DNA from: Dipteris shenzhenensis
Taxonomy: Eukaryota
Strand: one strand, 5' to 3'
DNA length: 64,000 nt
Assembly (NCBI GenBank): GCA_047967505.1
Contig: CM106538.1
Below, in pieces: positions 10,240-41,502 of the stretch (positions are counted from its first letter, which is position 1; each line of letters opens with the position of its first letter). The position numbers and the translations under genes are program-made. The notes under the pieces were generated by a model. The model searched no databases. It was given only the letters and a program-made list of their open reading frames with translations, and had not been told where the DNA came from.

Positions 10240-12599
10240 CATCCCCGATCCTTGTTGAAAAATTGCTCCGGTCTTTTTCCTGCTCTTTGCGGTATCATCT
10301 TCTGATCCAAATCGCTGCGAGTCGATGTTCCTGATCATTGCGATCATCTTCTCCAAATGCATCTGTTCATATTTTGTAACTAATAATCTTCTCCGAAACG
10401 CTTCTCTCCATATCTTCGAATCGCAGTTCTACTGTGGAGGGCAGCTTCGTTGCAGCTGCTTCACATGACTCCATGTCGAGGACAGCTTTGTTACAGCTTC
10501 ACACGCCATGCAGAACGGGTTGGGAATCGGTGGGATGACTGATCTTGAAGCTGCTTGACAAGGTCTGAAGAGTAAGCGATCTTTCACCAAGAGTCATATA
10601 TTTTCTATCTAATACTGTACAAAAAGAGGTTTCCTGTAGAGGAGAGCTTCGTTGCAGCTTCGCACTCCATGCAGAACGGGTTGGGAACTTGGGAATCGGT
10701 GGGATGGCTAAGCTTGAAGCTTGACAAGGTCTAAAGAGAACTCGATCTTTCATCAGTGTGATCTGATTTGTTCCAAAATCTCTGAGATGCCAACAATCTA
10801 ACAGGTGAGTTTTATGTCTCTAAATTTGCTAAGACTTATTAATATAACCCAGCTCACTCTTTATCCGCTAAAGATAGCACGCCTTGGCAATTTGGATAAT
10901 CTTGCCCCTGCATCTAGTTTGGTGAGTCATTCTATGAAAAATCCCAAATTAAAATTTGATGGAAGAGTGACATGCATTTTAATAAATTAATACATTCAAT
11001 AAAGTAAGATTTCGCTTTGGACTTTTGAATTCTATCGGAAATCAAATTGATGGAAGAGTGACATGCATTTTAATAAATTAATAACATGGTTTTACATTCA
11101 ATAAAGTAAGATTTTGCTTTGGACTTTTTAAGACTTGATAGAACAAACAGTAAAATGCCATTTCAAGATCTAAATGACATTGCAGTATTCTCATATGGTT
11201 ATTAAAATGGTGATATGCAGAATGTGTTACAATAAAGTGAGATTCATCTCCTCCATTGGTCTTGTCACTCTTTCTTCACATTGTAAGATTGTATTCTCAT
11301 AACCATATGAGAATTATAGTAATCTCATATGGTTATTAAAATGCTCATATGTACAATAACGTGAGATATATCTCCTCCATTGGTCTTATCACTTTTCCTT
11401 TACACTATAAGAACATAGGATATGGAGGCAGAATCTATTTCTTAAAGGTGTAGTGGATAGAATCTATTTCTTAAAGGTGTAGTGGATCTTTTTCTAGAGT
11501 AAATTCTAGCTACCACTTTTAGGGCATGTATGAAAAATTTCCTTTATAGACTAGTCTTTAATGAGTTTGCAAATTCCTAGTAGAGCTAGCAAATTAAGCT
11601 ATTGTCACTCTCTTTAGAGTAGGTTGGATTCCAAGTCTCATGCCATCCATTCTTAGTGTATTTTGATATTGCAATTTTGTTCAATTATTCAAGCATCTCT
11701 TCAATTGGTGATCCATATTCAAATAGATTAGCCATCTAGTGTGAAGTCTAGGAAATATTTTATAGCCTTTAGATGTGTGCAATGCTACTTCAAATGCTAT
11801 TTATAAGTACTTCACATGCTTTCTATAAGGAATGATTGCATATTAATTTTGTTACTTGTTGAAATTTCTTAATCTTTAGATTTTATCAACCACTTCAATC
11901 CTTTCCACCATATTGAAGAGCATGGAAGGACATGATCATCTTCTTCAAGCTGTTGTTAGATGTTTTTTATCATCTTCTTGCGAATTCCTAGTATAGCCAA
12001 CCAATTAAGTAACTGTCACTCTCTTTGGTGTACTTGTTTTCATGTTGGAGTTCAATTTTGATGCCATCCATTCTAAGTGTATTTTGTTATTGCAATTTTA
12101 CTCAATTATTCAAGCATCTCTTCTAAAAAGTGAGCCTATCTGAATAAATTAACCATCTAGTGTGAAGTTTAGGAAACATTTTATAGCCTTTAAATGTGTA
12201 CATATGTATCCATTTTCATGAATTTGTTAGAAATGGATGAAACTATTCTAGCTTTCAACATTGTCCCTCCCTCTCTTGATTATTATAGAACAAGATTGAA
12301 ATGATAGTAAAAAAACCCCTCTAATATTAAACTATGAAATCTCATCCCTATCGGGCTTGTTGCATGATATCAAAGACTCTAAGACAAAGGACCTGACTAT
12401 CAAGCACTATCACCCAGTCAGCAAAGCTACTAAGACAAAGGACTCGACTATCAGACACTATTGGCCAGCTGTCAAAGCTACTAACAAAGATTCCGCCAAA
12501 GCATAAAGCTTCAAAGTGTCTTGTGGATCGACGTATTAAACTTTGCATAGCTCTTATTTCTAGTCATTTGAATGTATTTGCAAGGTTTCATGGAAATCC

Positions 12600-28600: not shown

Positions 28601-29778
28601 ATTCATCCTATGAAAGTTTGAACTTAGGGCTCTTCATTCTTGAAGGTCATGGTACTACACATAGTTACCTCAAAGCTGGTCCATAAAGCTTTCAAGAATA
28701 CCATCAAACTAGGCTAAAAAGAGTTAATATGGTAGCCCAATTTGTGAATGTCACCCCCTTGTGTCATTTTAGGAGTATTCTTCCACCACGTCTTCACCAA
28801 GATGTTGTTCATACCAAATATAAGTAACTTCTTTCAAGGCATGACATTTTGAGTATCACCTATAAGTAACAATGACGTACACACAAATCTCAATACATGA
28901 GTAAGTATTAGAAAACAATAAGAGGAGACTGTAGATAAAATTATTTTTACATTTCGTGTCATTCAAAAAATAGAAGACCAACAAAAGTATAATATTCTCA
29001 CTTCATAGAGGATCTAGTCTTATGATTTGGGGTTGGACATTTACTAGGCTCATTGACAAGATCCTTAGAATTCTTTTGGAGATGAAGGTTTCTTTTCTTC
29101 AAACCAACTAAGAGGGATACCAAGTACAGTGTCTTCCAACACAATAATAGCCCGGGAATAGATGGTACCCCTAGAGTATGTAGACAAGAATATCTTGTTT
29201 TATTTGGTAAGGGGATCCATTTTGATAGCTAAGGAGGGAAATTTCAAGTGTTGTGGTACATTGAGAGCTTTAACATACAATGAGGATGATGCTTCCTCTA
29301 TTATTTCTCTGTGTCCAAGCCAAATTCTCCTAAAAATTAGATCATTATTATATATGTAAATTGTGATTTTGACATGATAAAGCCTTTAAACCTCAAGGTA
29401 GAGATATAGAAGTCCATTAGTACTAATTTAAATTTATTGCCAAGTTTATGACTAGTTATATCTATAGGATGTCTCGAAGGAATCAGAAGTTCAAAAATAT
29501 CCTAAGATTGCAAAGAGATGAGAAAGCTTGGTAGCGGAGATGGCTCAATGAAGGGGACACTAGAGGAAAGCATGGAGGGCTCAAAGAAATAAGTACCGCA
29601 TGTGGAAGCTGGCTCCTCCCCTTCTTCAAGTGACCTTGAGGGTGTGGATGTTGAGACTCTAGGTATTTTATCGACCTTTGAGATGGTGATCTCTTAGCAA
29701 AATGTTTTGAGAGACAAGATTCACCTTAAAAAGCTTGTGGATGTCAAAACTTTTGAGCACTTATTTGAGCTGTAAGTG

Positions 29779-31990
29779 AAAAGACTTCATAGGTCCCTTA
29801 TTGATTTAGCTCCTCGGATGAGACCCCTAAAAGTGAGGGATCCACATTGCTCGCATGTTCCAATTTGAGGGTCAATTTGAAAATCAATCCCTTTGCTAAT
29901 GTGGTCCCAGTTCTGGTTATGGTTGATCCATCTATTTGCCTAGATAAGGGGAGTTTGATATTGCAAAGACCAACTCCTATGACTATTTTGTCATAGGACG
30001 ATGTCACAGGGCATCTTTGATATTACAAAGAAGAACTCCTACGATTATGTTTTCATAGGAGGATGTCATAGTGTAGAGGCAAGAAGGCAACTGTGCAGAA
30101 AGTATCTTGACTTTGTGCACTTCAAGATAGCTCCATGTAAGATTTATGAAGGCCTCACAAAAGAAGAAGCTACCCTCTTAGCCTAGGATCTTAGCCTAGG
30201 ATCATACTAATGAGAACAATTGCCAGCAAGGAATGTCCACTATTCAAAAGATTATATTTTTTCAAAAAGAATATTTAGGAGTATTGAGATGAAGTTACAT
30301 TGGCATTTAGGATCTAGTTTTGTAGAGAGACTAGATTGGTTTTTTATGAAACTAAGAGCTCAATTACCTTAAGAAGGTATGATCAATTCTTCTAGCTTGC
30401 ATTTAGATCAAGACCAATCTAGGATCTTTGAGAGGAAAATTTTTCAATTTGGGAAAGAGGTGAAGTCAAGCGTTGAAAACAACTCAAGGCACATGATAAT
30501 TCAAACATCCTTTTGAAAGGGACGAGAAAAAAATTAGATGTGGCCTTGAAGACATTGTCCGATGAGATGGATCACTTTTTGGAGGTCTAAGTAAGGGATT
30601 AAGGATGAAAAGTTCATACTCTCTACCTTGTCTTGGGTTAAAGCAAGAGAACTGAGCTTGGAAGAGATGTCCCAGTCTTTTGAAGAGTAAGTCTTGTTCC
30701 CTCACTATTAAATAATTTATATTTTGTGTACATTTTTTTTAAATGTATAAGATGTATAGAAGTAGTTCTATGTGTTCTTTTCTTTACAACCATAAAACAA
30801 AGATGAGAATGCAAGAACAAATGATGGTTATGCTCAATGTATAGACATGGGATCATATTGTTGTAGAGTATCCCATTTCTGGTGCATATTAGTCTTTGAA
30901 GCCATCTTTCATTGCATTCAAAATATTTTAAGTGTATTATCAAATTTTGTGTTTGAGAACATTATAAAAATTTAAAATAAATCTATTCTAATATGTGTAT
31001 TATTTTTTATGCAAGAAACAAGAGCAAAATCAACCACCCTAGAGTTCCCTGAAAAATTTAAGCTCATATTGAGAGTATTAGGCTAGAGAAGGAGAGAAGA
31101 GAGGGGCTATAGATTACACATAGTGATGATAAGAGATTTACCCTATCTCAAATCCTCTTAGGGTGAACTACTATGATATTTATTACTGTGATATGAGGGA
31201 TTTCCCTGCCAATATCCCCCAAAAGATTATAAGCTATCAAGATTTGGTATTCCTTACAACTTTAGATTGAAAGGGAGCGTTAATTATATTTCCATAGGTT
31301 ATAAAAAAGATACCATGGTGTCTACCTTCAAAGCACACAACCTGGCACTTGATTAAACATTTGTAATGTTTCACTCCATTGCCTAAGCTGCTTCTATGAT
31401 GAGAGTGTTGATGGACCACAGCCATGCATTGGAAAGCATGATATGGTAAGTTAATAGTAACTTTTCCTCTCATCTTAAATGTATGTTGGATGTTGTATTG
31501 ACACCTTTAGATATATTCTAATCTTTATTTTTATTAATTTGTTATAGGTAAAGACGATGATGCATGTCAAGTACTTATTGTTAGTGGAGAAGGCCAAAAT
31601 AGTTATGCATTATAATAGAAGAAATGTAAATAATGTTAGTAGAGAAGGCCAAAATATTTATGCGTGTCAAGTTTTTATTGTTAGTGGAGAAGGCCAAAAT
31701 AGTTATGCATTGTAATAGAAGAAATGTTAATAATGTTTTAAATTTTCCAGCATAGTGACATAGAAGCTTCATTTGATATGGAAAAAGTAATAATAAATTA
31801 ATAATTTTCATATCGAATGCCACATCGTCTTATCAATGAGTTGTTGGATCTTTTCACTCTTGAGGATGATTGGGTCGATGATTTTTTGCTAGGATGGAGA
31901 CAATCACAATCTACGCTTTATAGAAAGATCGACATTTGAAAAAGATCCTATGCAATCATCCTACATCAGGTATATGTTATCGATGGCCTA
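29779..31990 (+). pseudogene. Decayed ParB/Srx-like domain plus beta-class DNA N6-adenine/N4-cytosine methyltransferase, with introns
   Basis: Translation across frameshifts gives a ParB-like part VRDPHCSHV/NLRVNLKINPFANVVPVLVMVDP...YDYVFIGGCHSVEARRQL...KIYEGLTKEEATLLA*DH. The MTase part reads DIYYCDMRDFPANIP/KDYKLSRFGIPYNF (motif IV, GIPY at 31246-31257), FVMFHS...MIW, then YRMPHRLINELLDLFTLEDDWVDD/FARMETITIYAL*KDRH/FEKD (motif I region, 31811-31946). GT donors at about 30687 and 31446. Confidence 0.65.
31565..31735. repeat. Three imperfect copies of ttagtggagaaggccaaaatagttatgc within the methyltransferase relic
   Basis: Directly visible. Confidence 0.8.
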
Positions 31991-34188
31991 CCAGATGCTA
32001 GTGAGGAGGTGGGAGTGAAGCTCAACTCATATAATGATTAGATATAACTAGCTTCTGGAGAGCCCTAGCCTACTTATAAAGATGAGGAATCAAAGTTTGT
32101 AGAGCTGGAAGAGTCCATAGTGCCACAAAGTAGCTAGTCCCCCCCTAAAATGAAGATAAGCTTTCTGAAGGTTAGTAACTTCTAAATATTTAGAGTTGCA
32201 TATGCTCTTATCTCTGATGTGTTCACTTTATATACATTTGAACAATATGTGTTCCCCTTTCTTTCTTTCATGTGTCATTATAATTAATTTTTAATAATAC
32301 TTGATTTTTTTAATTTATTCCTAATAATACAGAATTTGAGTGTTTATTATTAATATATGAAGTGAGTCAACTTTAATTTATTTTAATCTATACTTCTAAA
32401 TTTTGAAATTAATAAAATAGAAGAACTTTTATCCATTGATATCTTTGTACTTTCATATCATGTTGTTATATTCATTTTTGCAAATTAATAGTTGCTTAAG
32501 TAGGAGGTTTCTTATTTAAAAAGTGTAACTTGGTTTGATATATCAACGTTTAGAACTCAAAATTAATACATGTAATTGAGTGAAGGTTAAGTTATTAATT
32601 TTATAGAGTTCATGATATAACATTTTAATTTATAACCTTTATTTCAAAATGAAAATGTCAGTGAGTATACGACATGCCAACACGTGTATATATAATTTTT
32701 ATTTTTTTTTGTTTTAAAAAATAAATTTGGTTTTTCTCATGATATTCATAATTGAAACAAAAAGGAGTATGTGATCAATGCAAATACATGATATTTCCAC
32801 CTATAGAAGCTTACTTTGATGAGGGAAAATAGATGAAAGTAATGAGCTATAAATATAATGAATGTCAATGTAGGGACATTGAGTGCCTCACTTTGAAACT
32901 ATCTATATATTGGCTCTTACCTTAGCTGCCAACCTTCTATATTCATTGAAGTGTTTTTCCTAGCTTGTATAGTAGGTCATGAATTCCATGAAAAAAAACA
33001 TTCTCAAGTAAAGAACTACCATGTACTTACAATCATAAATATTAATTTATAGCTAACAAATATGCATCTCACATTACATTTTATCAAAATTCATGGTCTT
33101 GAAATCATAAAAGATTTTAAAATTATTTATTTCTTTTTAAAGATCTAATGTATAAAAGCATGGTATTTTTAATATGAGGATGTGTAAAATAATCTCATGA
33201 AAATATTTTTCATAAAATTGCTATCTTTTTTCATAGATAGGTACAAATTTTAAAATTTAGGCAAGATTTTGTATTACTTCATGGGAAAATTAAAAGTGGG
33301 TAATCACAGCAATTTTCACTTGATACACAATAGTGTTATGGATCGACGGTCAAGACCTTGAAATCATATAAATGAGATTGATGCATACATCTCACAAATG
33401 AATGATTTGGTAGAACGCATGAGTATTCATTATGAAAGAAGCTTCACTGTATGGTAAAGTGAAAACAAATCTACACATATAGGCCATTGTGCAATCTATT
33501 TGACTCGAGCACTCTGCACAAATGCAAATACAAATTTTAATCTCCTATCCTTTTTTAGACTAAGCCTACCTTATATCCTCTCATGCAGATATGTATCTAC
33601 TTTCACCCATCTCTTAACCATTGTGTCATAGTTTCATATCATGCTGAGATATTACTCTTATGGCAAGCACATATGGATATTCTAAAAATAATTGACATAG
33701 ACCTATCATACTATCTTTTAAAGTATGTTATGAAAACTTAGCCCATGCAACATGTGAAATTGAACCCAACAAAAAAAGGCTTCTCAGACTAGATAATCTA
33801 GAATCGTTATAATTGAAAATGATTGCCATTCAAATTCTTACTTCTTGGAATTTGAGGGCTTGTACATCAACTAAAAGAAGACGTAATACCTCTCAATATT
33901 GATCATTATTGCAAGGTGCACATGCTAGTTGATCAAAATTGACACCAGCTAATAGATAAGATTCTCCAAAAGAGCCCCTTAGATGTACTTGAGAATGCTT
34001 GCATGGAATCAACAAACCCGATGAAGATTTCCAGCATGCCTAGCACCTAAATTACTCGAATTAAAATTCTTCAAATGATGGGAAAATTTCAAGGACTTAA
34101 AATTGCTACTTTATCATTTCACCAACAGCAAGAAGTTTATAACAAGGGTAATAGATCATTTTTTAAGATCAATTACATCACTTATAAT

Positions 34189-37100
34189 TGATAGCGAAAG
34201 TAAGAGAGGGAGAGAGAGAGGAGTGCACATGATATAGATACTTGTACACTAAGTGTATTGATAATGAACATGAAGATATACATGTGAACCCCTTAGGGTT
34301 AGGGTTTTCCCCTGTGCCCTATGTGGATAGTGCAATTTACACTATCTTTAACACCCCCTCTTAAATTGCATTGGGGGTAAGTAGAGGGTGCATGTACAAG
34401 ACCTATTTGTGGATTTCGTTTGGTGCATATGATAGATAGCATCCAAAACTAGAAAAGAAAACTAAAAGAAATCAGAGTAGTATGTGCGTATGTGAGCACA
34501 CGACTACATTGCGAAAGCATGTACAATGAGTACAACTTATGTGGTCCTATACAAGGTGTGGATTTCCCCCTCTTAAGTTGTGGGCCATCCTTCGCCTTTA
34601 AGAATAAAACCCAAAAGATAGGTCGAAAGGAAGAGGAAGAAAATATGCAGAAGTAAAGTCCACCTGGATCAAAGACTGGTCGATCAAAAGATGACTGCAT
34701 GGAGAACTGTGTGTATGGCTGTGTGCTAAACATGTCAAGGCTGAACATGTTATAAGTCACTATGGACTATGTAGCTGCTCTGAGGAAGAGGCATCCGGAT
34801 GTGAGGCTAGTTGATGTAGCTATGGTGATATGATCCGGTAGGTTGTGACATACGAGGGTGTCACCAACCCAAAAGAAGTGATAGCAATGGTAAAGGTATG
34901 CTACAGTAGAACTGTGATCTTTGTCGAATGATGCAGGGTCAAAGAAGACCGCATAGTCGATGTGGACAGAGTGATCCAAGGGCTAAAAATATGGGGCCGA
35001 AGGTGCAGGTATGATACACTACTCTGTTGAATAAGAGGCCCATAGAACTAACAAGGTATGGAAACCTGTCAAACCTGTATGCTCAATTGTCATGAGTTGA
35101 AGGTTCTCTTGTGTGTGCATAGCTAAACAACCATTGGCACAAGTTGTAGCATTTATCAAAGACTCATCAAGAAGGAGCTAACAGTATAAAGGCCTAGAAG
35201 CCTAAAGTACAACTGTGAATGCATAAGATGTCCCTGAGGCATATGTGGTGCCGAATGCTGATGAATAAGGGACCGATCTGAAGTCGTGGATCCAACCACT
35301 AATCTGCATCATGTAAGACTGTATACGACAGCCATAAGTACATGATGAAACACTGAGTCTCCCCAGGTTGCGCTATGGCTGGTGGACCTAAAGATGTCCA
35401 CTGCATTGGGGTAGGATTGCACTGATGCGTAGGTATCCTCGTGCTGAGGAATGATCTGATGATCGAAAGAGGTGGTGATCACTGGATCCAAGGGTGGTGC
35501 AATGTGGCATGACTGAGCCAATGTTGAGATGTCCTAAAGACTGATGTGCTGATCTGTACTGCTAAAGGGAACTGAGCCCAAGGTATGCTCTATGTAAGAG
35601 GTGAAAGCATTAGTGATGGATGCTGGAATGGTATCACATGAGGAGCTGAGTGCGCTATGGCATGTATCTTTGCATGCGACAAAAGATGTGAGTGCCTCGC
35701 ACTGAGGAGTTACTGGAAGGATGGCCAAAGTTTGATCCAAGGAGGGGGTCCAAAAATGATGATGTGGCTTGTGGAGGTCACATGTAGTAATGCACTGTGT
35801 GCCTATGGAGGGGACTGTGCCTATTGAGCACTGATGCTGAGGTTGCACAGTGAGTTGGCACTGCCTACTGATATGGCACCTATGTGATTGTGCACTGATG
35901 ACTGGGCTACAAGTGAGGTGGCAGCTTTGATGATGTGGCAAGTGGGGGTCCAGTTAGAGTAACAGTGGTTAAGTAACCCGAATAATGTGTGGGGTTTGCC
36001 ACATGGCCAACCCTTGACCACTCTCTAAACCTAGGTCAACTTGACCTATCCATGGGATTAGGCCTATCTACCACATGGCAGATAGATAAGGGAGGTGGTA
36101 TCACTAAGATTCTGACGGAATCGTCTTTGATTCCATTGACGGACCAACGTCTGTCTGTGGGCAGGCTTGAAGCTTGAGCCAGGGAGCATGGAGCTTTTAC
36201 CGATCATGGAGCTGCCATACTATAGGTTGTGGGAGACATTATGAAGAGGAGAGTCTCTTTGCAAGAGAGCTCCTCGTTGGAGCCGTCATGTTGCGTGAGC
36301 GTCATTTGTCTTGGCTGGTCGTGGAGCCGCTGCCCGTGGTAGAGGACTTGAAGGCTCTGGCCATGGATGTGCTCGAGGAGCCATTGAAGCATGTCGTAGC
36401 TTCCATGGAGTCAGTGGAGGAGACTATTTGGCCCATTGAAGGTTCGTTGCATCGTGGGCGCCTAGATCTCTTAGCGTTCCAAGGTTGACTGTGGGCAAAA
36501 GTCATTTGCTGCTGGGTCGCAACCTTTACTAAGACGGGTCATGCTTTTGTTGGAGAAGCTTGCTGTGTGAGGCTCATCGATTTGTGGAGGTCATTGTGCC
36601 ACTAAACTAATGCTTTGGAGGTGGTGCTCGTAGTGTTGTTGGAGCAGCCCAAGTTTGCCTTGCTAGAGTCGAGGGATTGACATGAGGAGTCGGCTACTGG
36701 TTAGCATTGAGTCGCAGAAGGAGCCCATGGTAGGAGCATCACTATTGTAGTAGCCGCTTGCCTAAGGATAGTCGTTGCAGTTTGTTATGGAGTAGAAGGA
36801 GCCGAGAAGCATGTTTGGAGGCATGGAAGGACTCATTGAAGCATGGAGTCTTTGAATTGGAGAAGCTCAAGAATGGAGGTTAGCTGCATTCCCGTGGGCT
36901 TTGAAGCTTAAATAGAGTGGTCGAAGCTCTGCCTTAGCACAAGTCATGGGTGCTCCTTCCCTTCTTTCATCTTCATCTCAGAATTCCACTCTAATGTACT
37001 ACAGCCAGCTCAGGCCAATTGCCCTAGAGAAACAACAAACCTTAATCTTTCTCCCAAGAGAACCTTAGCAATCTCTCTAAAATGAACAAAATCATGAAGT

Positions 37101-37537
37101 GAACCACATATCACTCAAGATGAGATATCTCAAGCCCCAAGAAGCGGATTCTTGAGCTTTCTAAAGCAAATCGAAGGGGCAAGAGGAGCTCTACAAGCTA
37201 AACACTACAAGAGAAGAAGATGCCTCAAATGGAGGGCTTGTCGCCTTGATGGAAGCAAGGGCTTGACTCTCTCCGACGAAAATCTCTCTCAATGGAAGAT
37301 GTCACACATCAAAAGGAGGGCTTGACACTCATGAAGGGAGTGGGAACACCACCAGCTCTGATACCATGATAGCGGAAGTGAGAGAGGGAGCGAGAGAGGA
37401 GTGCACACGATATAGCTACCTGTACACTAAGTGTATTAACAATGAACATGAAGATATACATGTGAACCCCTTAGGGTTAGGGTTAGGGTTTACCCCTATG
37501 CCCTATGTGGATATTGCAATTTACACTATCATTAACA
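34189..37537 (-). mobile_element. Complete non-autonomous LTR retroelement with very short LTRs (TRIM/LARD-like)
   Basis: LTRs at 34189-34353 (165 bp) and 37367-37537 (171 bp), both TG...CA. TSD ATAAT at 34184-34188 and 37538-37542. tRNA-iMet PBS (gctctgatacca, 37355-37366) and a PPT (ccccctctt next to 34354). No recognisable gag/pol in the 3-kb interior. Confidence 0.93.
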
Positions 37538-41316: not shown

Positions 41317-41502
41317 AGTTCATCGAGATGGCATTCTATTTGAAGACACCAAAACCTACCATGGCATGAATTTGGCCATTTAGAGGGCGTCCAAATGGCT
41401 AAATTTGTGCCATGGCAAGTTTTGGACACCCTCTAAATGGCCAAATTTGTGCCATGGAATACTTTGGTGTCTTCAAATAGAAGTTTCCATCCTTATGAAC
41501 TT
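41317..41502. repeat. Long imperfect inverted repeat (foldback/MITE-like), arms about 80 bp
   Basis: ttctatttgaagacaccaaa...ccatggca..aatttggccatttagaggg.gtccaaa pairs with tttggacaccctctaaatggccaaatttgtgccatgg...tttggtgtcttcaaatagaa. Confidence 0.9.

Follow-up and report, generated by a model that had tools for sequence, protein, structure and literature searches.

We identified one decayed gene in a 64,000-nt stretch of Dipteris shenzhenensis DNA (contig CM106538.1; hereafter the window). The gene lies on the plus strand, to which all coordinates below refer, at positions 29602-32074, and perhaps starts from 29162. Taken as a whole, the evidence is best explained by a dead member of a eukaryotic, apparently transposon-borne family of ParB-methyltransferase proteins, and we consider this reading very probable. 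The relic has no present function and the locus in itself is ordinary. A first-pass annotation of the same DNA had proposed such a relic at 29779-31990. The gene relic is real, but it is larger than proposed, starting by 29602 and ending at about 32074. Each of the three motif blocks underlying that proposal was found where it had been placed. The genes neighbouring the relic in the window are fern-like, and CpG is depleted (observed/expected 0.23).

When the relic was translated in one frame with read-through of the stops (P0001), the search returned a single protein among 788 scored candidates, Gb_10123 of Ginkgo (E = 8.5e-14; E-values scaled to a database of 5.77 billion sequences). The related protein P0013 matched the window with a summed E-value of 9e-34 (tblastn), and all the tblastn matches of family proteins to the window fell within 29614-32071. 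The family HMM aligned to the window in nine colinear pieces (29602-32074) that alternate among the three plus-strand frames and cover about 560 profile positions, the best pieces reaching 64.6, 48.9 and 31.5 bits. Only one of the relic's eight open pieces matched Pfam (DUF6551; E = 0.098, not significant), and none of the window's five methyltransferase pieces reached a Pfam match. The relic's match is therefore significant because of the family profile; the window pieces alone would fail Pfam. The absence of a significant Pfam match among the open pieces would fit a chance likeness between degenerate sequence and short motifs of methyltransferases and ParB. However, the database-wide E-value, the summed E-value and the nine colinear pieces already refute this explanation, whose probability we consider negligible.

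The first-pass annotation had declared this copy dead, and its lesions bear this out: the relic presents 24 in-frame stops within the aligned pieces, at least six frameshifts and three internal tandem duplications, and the central segment of its methyltransferase is no longer recognisable. A tentative remnant of the N-terminal domain may lie at 29162-29356, where residues 27-76 of the Ceratopteris protein P0024 aligned by tblastn (E = 0.56) and the family HMM gave no match. The linker and the first half of the ParB/Srx-like domain are found at 29602-29951 in two frames, with a frameshift near 29859 and two stops in the aligned pieces (HMM positions 282-369, 25.5 bits; 370-400, 18.0 bits). A 62-bp tandem duplication with 84% identity (29954-30077) then shifts the frame; it doubles the coding sequence that leads up to the GGCH motif and enters it, and the duplicated peptide is visible in two frames. 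The core of the ParB/Srx-like domain occupies 30016-30189 (HMM positions 402-459; 64.6 bits), with GGCHS at 30058-30072, and presents 49% identity to Gb_37443 of Ginkgo over 63 residues. The non-significant DUF6551 match falls in this core. The ParB-like block at 30040-30183 reads Y-D-Y-V-F-I-G-G-C-H-S-V-E-A-R-R-Q-L ... I-Y-E-G-L-T-K-E-E-A-T-L-L-A. Another tandem duplication, of 13 bp (2.2 copies with 100% matches; 30176-30203), frameshifts the conserved L-A-W-D-H-N stretch, and the frame switch between HMM pieces at 30189/30188 falls inside it. The remainder of the ParB-like module, together with the helical middle region, extends over 30188-30686 in three frames (HMM positions 455-488; 490-591, 48.9 bits; 593-634, 31.5 bits), with nine stops in the aligned pieces and an exon end that reads ...S-Q-S-F-E-E.

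The introns proposed by the annotation were recovered in part. A short intron remnant at 30687-30769 retains its GTAAGT donor (30687-30692; phase 2) but no clear acceptor, and this donor falls at the codon and phase where five related copies carry an intron of 75-90 nt. About 25 relatives predicted from short contigs stop at this very codon. One stretch previously read as intron, however, holds a small exon located between the domains (30770-30922; N-H-K-T-K-M-R-M-Q...), which aligned by tblastn to residues 487-537 of P0024 (37% identity, within a summed E-value of 2e-26). The N-terminal half of the methyltransferase follows at 31133-31445 (HMM positions 735-827; residues 368-446 of Gb_37443 by tblastn), with a frameshift near 31220. 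Beyond it lies a GT...AG interval (31446-31750; donor 31446-31451, acceptor AG 31749-31750) containing a 55-bp tandem repeat in three copies (31579-31737). About 60 methyltransferase residues expected within this interval were not recognisable there, and HMM positions 828-891 had no match. The C-terminal half of the methyltransferase and the tail are found at 31751-32074 in three frames (HMM positions 892-993; residues 518-611 of Gb_37443 by tblastn).

The catalytic motifs of the relic can be compared directly to those of its relatives. The motif IV block reads I-Y-Y-C-D-M-R-D-F and, after a frame change, P-K-D-Y-K-L-S-R-F-G-I-P-Y-N-F, with GIPY at 31246-31257. The motif I block reads Y-R-M-P-H-R-L-I-N-E-L-L-D-L-F-T-L-E-D-D-W-V-D-D-F, followed by F-A-R-M-E-T (31885-31902) and F-E-K-D; its Y-R-M-P stands for Y-Q-K-P. 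Motif IV precedes motif I in the window and in all aligned relatives. Among the related loci, motif IV is DIPY in 39 of 49, and the variants found elsewhere are DPPY (five members) and D-F/L/A/I-P-Y (Chara, ferns and others); motif I is FSG(T/S)G in 39 of 50 occurrences. As the annotation had supposed, the window carries point-mutated versions of these motifs, with GIPY against the DIPY of the closest clade and FARMET against its FSG(T/S)G. The catalytic tetrad, which it suggested reading in intact copies, is DIPY in the closest clade and DPPY in more distant members. Based on GIPY, FARMET, the 24 stops and the roughly 60 missing residues, the window copy is a pseudogenised, and not an active, member of PF01555.

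PF01555 itself was detected in relatives with high significance: in Gb_10123 (E = 7.8e-19), in Gb_37443 (E = 7.6e-18), in P0100 (E = 2e-14; profile positions 2-213 of 221) and nearly end to end in P0173 (positions 2-220 of 221). This domain matched eight of the 34 alignment members, most of the others ending before the methyltransferase domain. Compared to the PDB, the family profile best matched M.RsrI (E = 2.9e-6), followed by MboIIA, CcrM and DpnA, and the M.RsrI match covers the Q-K-P ... F-x-G-x-G ... region. M.RsrI, M.MboIIA, CcrM and DpnA are stand-alone bacterial enzymes of 230-370 residues, unlike the C-terminal fused domain described here. A D-P-P-Y-type catalytic motif is common to these enzymes and to the more distant family members; relative to D-P-P-Y, plant members of the family have changed the second residue of motif IV to I, A, F or L. 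In the AlphaFold model of the fern relative P0010, the methyltransferase part presented a pLDDT below 50.

The ParB-like part of the same P0010 model was predicted with higher scores, with a block-mean pLDDT of 80-97 (mostly >90) over residues ~90-230. Structural comparison using VIA-align placed ParB/Srx-fold proteins in all of the top seven rows (Z from 9.4 to 6.6): PadC (Z 9.4; rmsd 2.7, 96 aligned) and Pnob8 ParB-N (Z 9.2; 212 aligned), then KorB (8.8), a serine kinase (7.8), Arabidopsis Srx (7.8), SbnI (6.7) and human Srx (6.6). With Foldseek, the top ten matches were Noc/ParB chains (E = 1e-5 to 5e-4) and sulfiredoxins ranked next, and the Noc/ParB alignments (~270 columns) extend over the N-terminal and central domains of these proteins. 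Two search methods applied to one predicted structure of a fern relative show a ParB-like fold for the N-terminal module. Together with PF01555 in relatives, these results agree with the fusion of a ParB/Srx module to a beta-class amino-methyltransferase that had been read from the relic.

At the sequence level, the profiles expected for this fusion were obtained for one of its two parts. N6_N4_Mtase was significant in relatives, but the ParB part matched DUF6551 only, presumably one of the ParB-like families, in 11 of the 34 members and below the cut-off of that profile (best E = 0.019). A sequence search of the PDB with the ParB part yielded no ParB chain within E = 10. The arginine patch of ParB (box II) has the motif G-x-R-R or G-E-R-R, and the sulfiredoxin-type motif is G-G-C-H-R. 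At the box II position, the family presents G-G-x-H-S/N/T with near-invariant G, G, H and S, and not G-E-R-R. This motif is closer to the G-G-C-H-R of sulfiredoxin than to the G-E-R-R of the CTP-dependent ParB, Noc and KorB clamps.

Intact genes encode, in order, an N-terminal domain peculiar to the family, a basic/acidic linker, a domain of ParB/sulfiredoxin fold, a helical segment that resembles ParB/Noc and putatively binds DNA, and, as the C-terminal third of proteins of 650-1000 residues, an amino-methyltransferase of the beta class (N6/N4; PF01555). Members were found in Ginkgo, ferns, a liverwort and Chara, as well as in a sea cucumber and an amoebozoan; the suggestion that intact copies may exist elsewhere proved true in other genomes. 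Wherever the family occurred, it was present in several copies: the 30 representatives looked up include ten Chara clusters, four from Riccia and four from Adiantum, and 149 relatives were recovered in a metagenome scan. A distribution restricted to plants with motile sperm had been considered and was dropped in view of the transposon context and of members outside plants. Our literature search, which covered chiefly the main text of openly accessible papers, found no description of a eukaryotic ParB-PF01555 fusion, and the family is apparently undescribed in the literature searched.

In the phylogenetic tree of the family, the window copy grouped with Ceratopteris and with transposon-borne copies (local support 0.987), which shows that it belongs in, or next to, a clade whose copies are bounded by terminal inverted repeats (TIRs). 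In this closest clade, the gene resides within an element of ~7.7 kb with 34-bp TIRs and two genes. We found both TIRs in L046, L053 and L065 and a single one in seven further loci, and the homology between copies ends at the TIRs. The second gene is a divergent, transposase-like ORF (DUF7869; E = 1.7e-52), present upstream in all 11 loci whose upstream sequence reaches 3.5 kb or more, and open for 829-916 aa in nine of 12. An array of palindromes of the form CGATRC-N(1-7)-GYATCG lies upstream of the methyltransferase gene in the element; 31 of the 34 related loci contain such palindromes (143 matches versus 0.36 expected). A clean 4-bp repeat flanking the element, a candidate target-site duplication, was observed in one of the three complete elements (L046; several end definitions were tried).

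We label the DUF7869 protein a putative transposase based on DDE-like motifs read by eye, the TIRs and the copy number. Searched against the PDB by sequence, it yielded no match, either as a single protein or as a profile, and its AlphaFold model had a mean pLDDT of 43.7. An Atlas search for DUF7869 neighbours returned nothing usable outside its own family, and the literature searched contained no mention of DUF7869. No transposase and no palindromes were found in the available flanks of the Ginkgo-like clade (L001-L009), and members of the family need not all be mobile.

The first-pass annotation had considered the gene probably transposon-borne, which the TIRs and the DUF7869 ORF support for the closest clade; around the window copy itself, these companions were looked for and not found. 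No relic of DUF7869 was detected in the 64-kb window by tblastn below E = 3, and the DUF7869 HMM found nothing better than E = 0.23, in a match located away from the relic. The TIR pattern was absent from the window at up to 8 mismatches of 34, and blastn with the element ends and intergenic regions revealed no similarity to subterminal or intergenic DNA. Similarly, there is no palindrome array upstream of the relic, even when including CpG-decayed forms (one match versus 1.04 expected). The tree grouping alone suggests that the window copy descends from a transposon copy whose transposase and ends either disappeared or were absent from the start.

Alternatively, the relic could be a decayed resident gene: a non-mobile, vertically inherited ParB-methyltransferase of streptophytes whose function was lost in this lineage. 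In its favour, neither remnants of a transposase nor TIRs nor a palindrome array were found in the window, and this scenario is also consistent with the intron position common to the fern and Ginkgo gene models, with the Ginkgo-like loci devoid of transposase in their available flanks, and with plant clades that roughly follow Chara, liverwort, ferns and Ginkgo in the tree. However, a resident gene fits poorly with the well-supported grouping of the window copy with the transposon-borne clade, the multi-copy state of the family everywhere it was seen, the 149 metagenomic relatives and a patchy distribution that reaches a sea cucumber and an amoebozoan. We regard vertical inheritance as a serious but clearly less likely explanation than descent from a transposon copy.

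Fusions of ParB with a methyltransferase are frequent in phages and plasmids, and PF01555 is mainly prokaryotic. The relic had been described as phage- or bacterial-type, a description that suits its architecture; the sequence likeness, however, is confined to the methyltransferase part. The phage and plasmid methyltransferases identified by tblastn presented ~22-29% identity when the whole domain was aligned, reaching ~40% at most in short C-terminal segments, and none of these matches covered the ParB part. One phage sequence (H19) is annotated as a ParB-like partition nuclease under its methyltransferase match. A pattern scan of limited reach across one genome per prokaryotic species found no relative of the ParB-plus-middle region, nor did similarly limited scans of a viral contig collection reveal any relative when P0100 and an alignment of that region were the queries; no close prokaryotic or viral relative of the family was found in these searches. 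The prokaryotic, phage and plasmid fusions (methylases of ParB-terminase loci and 'polyvalent protein' modules) share with the eukaryotic family the ParB-then-PF01555 order and the beta-class motif order. Both ride on mobile elements, the eukaryotic carrier being a TIR element. The eukaryotic gene differs by its introns, its extra N-terminal domain and its long helical middle region.

The frequency of such fusions in phages and plasmids, the mainly prokaryotic range of PF01555 and the annotation of H19 would be compatible with a bacterium or phage as the source, through either recent transfer or contamination. However, the low identity restricted to the methyltransferase, the limited scans without a ParB-plus-middle relative in viral contigs or prokaryotic species genomes, the intron positions common to plant gene models, the CpG depletion and the fern-like neighbouring genes all argue against it, and we consider this origin very improbable. 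Giant viruses encode many DNA methyltransferases. The relic of an endogenised large DNA virus would fit the patchy eukaryotic distribution and the multi-copy state of the family, but neither query found a relative among the viral contigs, the complete related elements are only ~7.7 kb long with TIRs and two genes, and the ORFs near the relic in the window include no viral hallmark genes. A viral origin is also very improbable, and descent from a DNA transposon remains our preferred reading.

Other eukaryotic methylases of bacterial origin have been described. The 4mC writers MpDN4MT1a/b of Marchantia and N4CMT of bdelloid rotifers likewise contain a bacterial-type domain, as far as their accessible descriptions go. 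MpDN4MT1 presents the catalytic motif TSPPY, and the available preprint text does not mention ParB. N4CMT is a permuted PF01555 enzyme fused to a chromodomain and, in the portion of the source available, is said to have no eukaryotic homologues; it resembles the ParB family in its permuted PF01555 domain and in its fusion to a chromatin- or DNA-targeting domain. Relative to these published descriptions, the ParB family differs by D-x-P-Y throughout, by its ParB-like module and by a much wider, multi-copy distribution. Its identity with Marchantia DN4MT1 was rejected based on the catalytic motif (D-x-P-Y versus the reported TSPPY). The Marchantia and bdelloid enzymes are different acquisitions, set apart from the ParB family by the accessible descriptions. 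Iyer, Zhang and Aravind (2016) catalogued independent eukaryotic acquisitions of prokaryotic amino-methyltransferases; in the main text of that catalogue, haptophyte clade 6 derives from phage ParB-terminase loci, and chlorophytes and chytrids have a group-2 family with a fused ParB-type HTH (PMC4738411). As described there, the latter is a Dam-like enzyme, unlike the PF01555 family reported here, and no clade in that main text corresponds to a fusion of PF01555 with a ParB/Srx fold in land plants or Chara (PMC4738411).

DNA transposons that carry a DNA-modification gene also have a precedent. According to the text available, fungal DNA transposons (KDZ, Plavaka, EnSpm, hAT and others) encode a TET/JBP dioxygenase beside their transposase, and it was proposed that this enzyme helps the element to escape methylation-based silencing (PMC12730594). 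As described there, these elements are, like the ParB-methyltransferase element, cut-and-paste DNA transposons with a DNA-modification gene (PMC12730594). By comparison to that account, the element described here encodes a methyl writer and not an oxidase, is hosted by streptophytes and scattered other eukaryotes, and possesses a DUF7869 transposase-like protein and an internal palindrome array.

Judging from the D-x-P-Y catalytic motif, the intact protein would methylate DNA, most likely at adenine N6. Its ParB-like module may target it to DNA, with the palindrome array of the element itself as a plausible, putative binding site. We tentatively raise the possibility that these elements represent an undescribed class of eukaryotic transposons, to which the relic would belong, with their own ParB-like, site-specific adenine methyltransferase and with parS-like palindromes between divergent genes. 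In such elements, the ParB-like module would bind the array and the enzyme would deposit 6mA on the element itself, with TCGA or ATCGAT-like cores as possible target sites. Such self-written 6mA would control the expression of the transposase or shield the element from host silencing. If true, these transposons would give eukaryotes a mobile equivalent of bacterial ParB/parS systems and of phage self-methylation.

The relic points to a widespread, multi-copy family of eukaryotic fusions between a ParB-like module and an amino-methyltransferase. If the enzymes are active, they would be candidates for depositing 6mA (or 4mC) in plant lineages in which the origin of these marks is debated, and they would provide a second example, after the fungal TET/JBP elements, of DNA transposons carrying a DNA-modification enzyme. 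The presence of a ParB-like module beside palindromes offers a directly testable model of targeting.

The three motif blocks that the first-pass annotation had translated by hand were all recovered where it had placed them in this eukaryotic, plant-like window, each in a frame that differs from that of its neighbour. When one window frame was read through its stops with X (P0001) and compared with 5.77 billion proteins, a single match was returned: Ginkgo Gb_10123 (E 8.5e-14; 54% identity), in which Pfam identifies PF01555, the N6_N4_Mtase domain (E 7.8e-19). A second-round search from Gb_10123 yielded 35 proteins, including four Ginkgo models, models of Adiantum nelumboides, A. capillus-veneris and Ceratopteris, and about 25 short-contig proteins. 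All tblastn matches of eight family proteins to the window fell within 29614-32071 (summed E 9e-34 for family protein P0013). We then ran a family HMM made from 34 members on the six-frame translation of the entire window and obtained nine pieces, colinear with the profile and alternating among the three plus-strand frames: 29602-29859 (profile positions 282-369; 25.5 bits), 29859-29951 (370-400; 18.0 bits), 29942-30013 (398-421; 6.4 bits; the first copy of a 62-bp duplication), 30016-30189 (402-459; 64.6 bits), 30188-30289 (455-488; 15.6 bits), 30282-30569 (490-591; 48.9 bits), 30571-30696 (593-634; 31.5 bits), 31201-31476 (735-827; 3.4 bits) and 31781-32074 (892-993; 4.7 bits). An additional small exon at 30770-30922 (+) matches residues 487-537 of the Ceratopteris protein P0024 (tblastn), and a weak match at 29162-29356 (E 0.56) may be a remnant of the N-terminal domain. 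The 64-kb window contains a single copy of the relic. Among eight open window pieces, the sole Pfam match was DUF6551 in a 67-residue ParB-like piece (E 0.098), and no Pfam match was found for the open methyltransferase pieces.

One exon of the relic ends in S-F-E-E at 30686 and is followed by GTAAGT, with the split inside the last codon (phase 2). Five related copies present an intron of 75-90 nt at the same codon and phase, with the donors GTAAGT, GTGAGT, GTATGT or GTTAGT. Left unspliced, these copies read K before running into a stop or meaningless sequence; if spliced as predicted, they continue with N-H-K-V-Y-M-K-I-Q, matching the Ceratopteris and Ginkgo gene models. This explains why the roughly 25 short-contig proteins end at the intron residue. 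A second GT...AG interval spans 31446-31750, and its start coincides with an intron of some relatives. Metagenome loci L001-L009 present a further predicted intron immediately after F-S-G-T/S-G, whereas the window copy (31885-31902) and the fern gene models continue without a break, indicating that this intron at motif I, the AdoMet-binding motif, is variable among family copies.

The first-pass annotation had considered this copy dead, and the sequence bears this out. Counted over the aligned pieces there are 24 stop codons, the first long exon has at least six frame changes, and tandem duplications interrupt the coding sequence at 29954-30077 (+; 62 bp, 84% identity), 30176-30203 (+; 13 bp) and 31579-31737 (+; 55 bp in three copies). 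Profile positions 828-891, about 60 methyltransferase residues, have no counterpart in the window, and the catalytic motif IV and motif I read GIPY and FARMET, respectively. The CpG observed/expected ratio is 0.23 in the relic and 0.40 in the window. The relic has no activity left.

Searched exhaustively with the profile, 1.84 billion representatives yielded 3507 proteins at E <= 1e-3, of which 278 reached 1e-10 and 63 reached 1e-30. The sources of 30 clusters, taken from the best 150 of the 3507, were looked up: Chara braunii accounted for ten, Riccia sorocarpa and Adiantum nelumboides for four each, one cluster includes a Holothuria leucospilota member, one is a Clastostelium recurvatum transcript, and among the other ten are proteins encoded by one ORF, 981-995 residues long and with a canonical DPPY. 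No family protein scanned for domains carries its own transposase, reverse transcriptase or integrase domain. Phage and plasmid collections gave matches to the methyltransferase domain only (~22-29% identity over the full domain, up to ~40% over short C-terminal stretches), and no relative of the ParB-plus-middle region turned up when viral contigs and a set of one genome per prokaryotic species were scanned by pattern. Scanning metagenome contigs yielded 149 relatives, 80 of which were retained (L001-L080), and many of these loci contain full-length open genes with three or four exons.

Aligned members share one layout. The N-terminal domain is specific to the family and is followed by a charged linker, a conserved block, a helical middle region that closes with L-S-R-V-...-L-S-L-x-E-M, and finally the methyltransferase. 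The conserved block is nearly invariant (Y-x-Y-x-V-x-G-G-x-H-S ... Y-x-G-L-x-x-x-E-A-K-x-L-A-x-D-H-N). The PF01555 match spans the full domain length in the family proteins P0100 and P0173, the PDB matches of the family profile are M.RsrI, M.MboIIA, CcrM and DpnA, and motif IV lies N-terminal to motif I, which defines the beta-class order. The family fuses a ParB-like DNA-binding-type module to a beta-class amino-methyltransferase, and many open copies retain the catalytic and cofactor motifs. The D-x-P-Y tetrad that the first-pass annotation expected in intact relatives is kept: DIPY in 39 of the 49 metagenome loci covering the region (the other ten being one DIPR and nine missed by the motif IV pattern), DPPY in five family members, DFPY in Chara and one JGI relative (P0055), DLPY in one JGI member (P0166) and D/E-A-P-Y in Adiantum. 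Ginkgo Gb_37443 reads DIPH. For motif I, 39 of 50 occurrences read FSG(T/S)G. D-P-P-Y usually corresponds to N6-adenine and S-P-P-Y to N4-cytosine, so that, judging from the motif, the intact enzyme is expected to act on adenine. Repeated specificity switches in the amino-methyltransferase domain are stressed in the rotifer N4CMT paper. Three non-plant members retain the ParB-like block and motif I with a degenerate motif IV (DMPQ in P0199 of Holothuria leucospilota, DTPT in P0181 of Clastostelium recurvatum and DMPK in P0151); these may be catalytically inactive derivatives.

The AlphaFold model of the fern relative P0010, built with a 34-sequence alignment (whole-model mean pLDDT 53.8), is confident in the ParB-like module only (residues ~90-230; block-mean pLDDT 80-97, mostly >90). 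Compared with 48,161 chains by VIA-align, its top seven matches were PadC (Z 9.4; rmsd 2.7; 96 residues), Pnob8 ParB-N (Z 9.2; 212 residues), KorB (Z 8.8), a serine kinase (Z 7.8), Arabidopsis sulfiredoxin (Z 7.8), SbnI (Z 6.7) and human sulfiredoxin (Z 6.6). Noc and ParB chains lead the Foldseek results (E 1e-5 to 5e-4; ~270 columns), followed by sulfiredoxins and KorB. These ranks suggest that the modelled module resembles the N-terminal plus central DNA-binding domain of ParB. CTP-dependent ParB proteins carry the arginine patch G-E-R-R, whereas the family presents G-G-x-H-S/N/T at this place, and we do not claim nucleotide dependence.

In the closest clade, the ParB-methyltransferase gene is linked with a transposase-like gene, terminal inverted repeats (TIRs) and a palindrome array. 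Copies are alike in DNA sequence over the gene itself and over another block lying 1-1.5 kb upstream, beyond which the similarity ends. This other block corresponds to a single-exon ORF (829-916 aa; open in 9 of 12 loci) that runs divergently from the methyltransferase gene and matches DUF7869 (Pfam; E 1.7e-52), as at L053:3538-6153 (-) and L046:1014-3632 (-). All 11 loci whose sequence extends 3.5 kb or more upstream of the gene contain it. Its ESM Atlas relatives are eukaryotic (Streptophyta, Oomycota and Echinodermata). Read by eye, three acidic motifs (D-G-M-D-Q, Q-L-D-N and H-T-H-D-H-I-D-Q) have a DDE-like arrangement, and we regard the ORF as putatively transposase-like. A terminal sequence of ~34 bp is common to three left ends and the reverse-complemented right end of L053, and the flanks beyond it are unrelated. 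Fuzzy search located TIR pairs at L046:698-731 and 8388-8421, L053:3147-3180 and 10918-10951, and L065:506-539 and 6516-6549, and, in seven further loci, a TIR at the one end where it was expected. The TIR-bounded elements range from ~6 to 7.8 kb (~7.7-7.8 kb for L046 and L053), and only L046 has a clean 4-bp flank repeat.

Palindromes with the core CGATRC-N(1-7)-GYATCG lie in the 1.3 kb preceding the methyltransferase gene, a region that is intergenic in the 11 loci having both genes. They were found in 31 of the 34 loci whose gene start is complete and preceded by at least 400 bp of sequence, often in 4-15 copies per array spaced by ~41-63 bp (for instance L048:3648-4120, L051:6238-6810, L080:3715-4320 and L041:671-1010). 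The count over 354.5 kb is 143, and mononucleotide shuffles give 0.36. All palindromes of the 34 tabulated loci are upstream except a second cluster ~2 kb downstream of the gene in L039 (5157-5531), which may indicate that another element begins next to it. In diverged elements the flanking bases have changed but the symmetry persists, and the palindrome looks like a candidate site of a dimeric DNA-binding protein.

We placed the window copy in a phylogenetic tree (FastTree, LG+gamma; profile positions 282-634; 47 rows), joining the relic pieces with X at breaks and dropping P0173, L005 and L013 for too few aligned residues. The window forms a long branch, sister to Ceratopteris P0024 and all transposon-borne copies (local support 0.987). 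The Ginkgo models cluster with a second set of loci (L001, L004 and L008), whose available flanks contain no DUF7869 neighbour or palindromes. The 64-kb window presents no DUF7869 relic, no element TIR and nothing similar to the ends or intergenic DNA of the elements, and no element palindromes were found for its copy. Elements share 53-80% identity in the transposase protein, and a DUF7869 relic decayed like the methyltransferase should therefore be detectable. The window copy either lost the transposase half or never had it.

Other features were observed in the window. A 385-aa ORF at 62075-63232 (+) has relatives carrying PF23112 (according to one source, the PUB 62/63 C-terminal domain); its best named matches are ferns (Adiantum 47% and Ceratopteris 42% identity, versus 33% for Ginkgo), with a top match overall of 62%. 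On this basis we take the window to come from a vascular plant with closer ties to ferns than to Ginkgo. A 658-aa open frame at 8263-10239 (+), in a GC-rich island (GC 0.53), consists mostly of S-G-P-N-P-G-G-N-S/A-Q-type repeats with an N-terminal hydrophobic stretch. Direct repeats of ~165 bp with TTAGGG-like units (34189-34353 and 37367-37537; 93% identical; 3.18 kb apart) may bound a small repeat element. Finally, an inverted repeat at 41334-41482 (62-nt arms, 89% complementary; 25-nt gap) overlaps a 42-nt direct repeat.

Database records of the family bear automatic names only, such as 'DNA methylase N-4/N-6 domain-containing protein'. The family is not described in the available portions of the Marchantia preprint, the rotifer N4CMT paper and the fungal TET/JBP transposon paper (PMC12730594), nor in the main text of Iyer, Zhang and Aravind 2016 (PMC4738411). 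Our literature search found no paper on it and no mention of 'DUF7869'; a transposon database such as Repbase may hold an entry for the element. We regard the family, of which the window holds a dead member, as a variant of two known kinds: the ParB-methyltransferase fusions found on prokaryotic mobile elements, and eukaryotic DNA transposons bearing DNA-modification enzymes. The intact protein would methylate DNA, probably at adenine, with the ParB-like module addressing the enzyme; the obvious candidate target would be the palindrome array beside its own gene. Alternatively, the palindromes might be read by the transposase-like protein or by a host factor. A methylation mark would serve the element, for example through control of the divergent promoters or interference with host silencing, a role similar to the one that the authors of the fungal study propose for TET/JBP genes on DNA transposons (PMC12730594).
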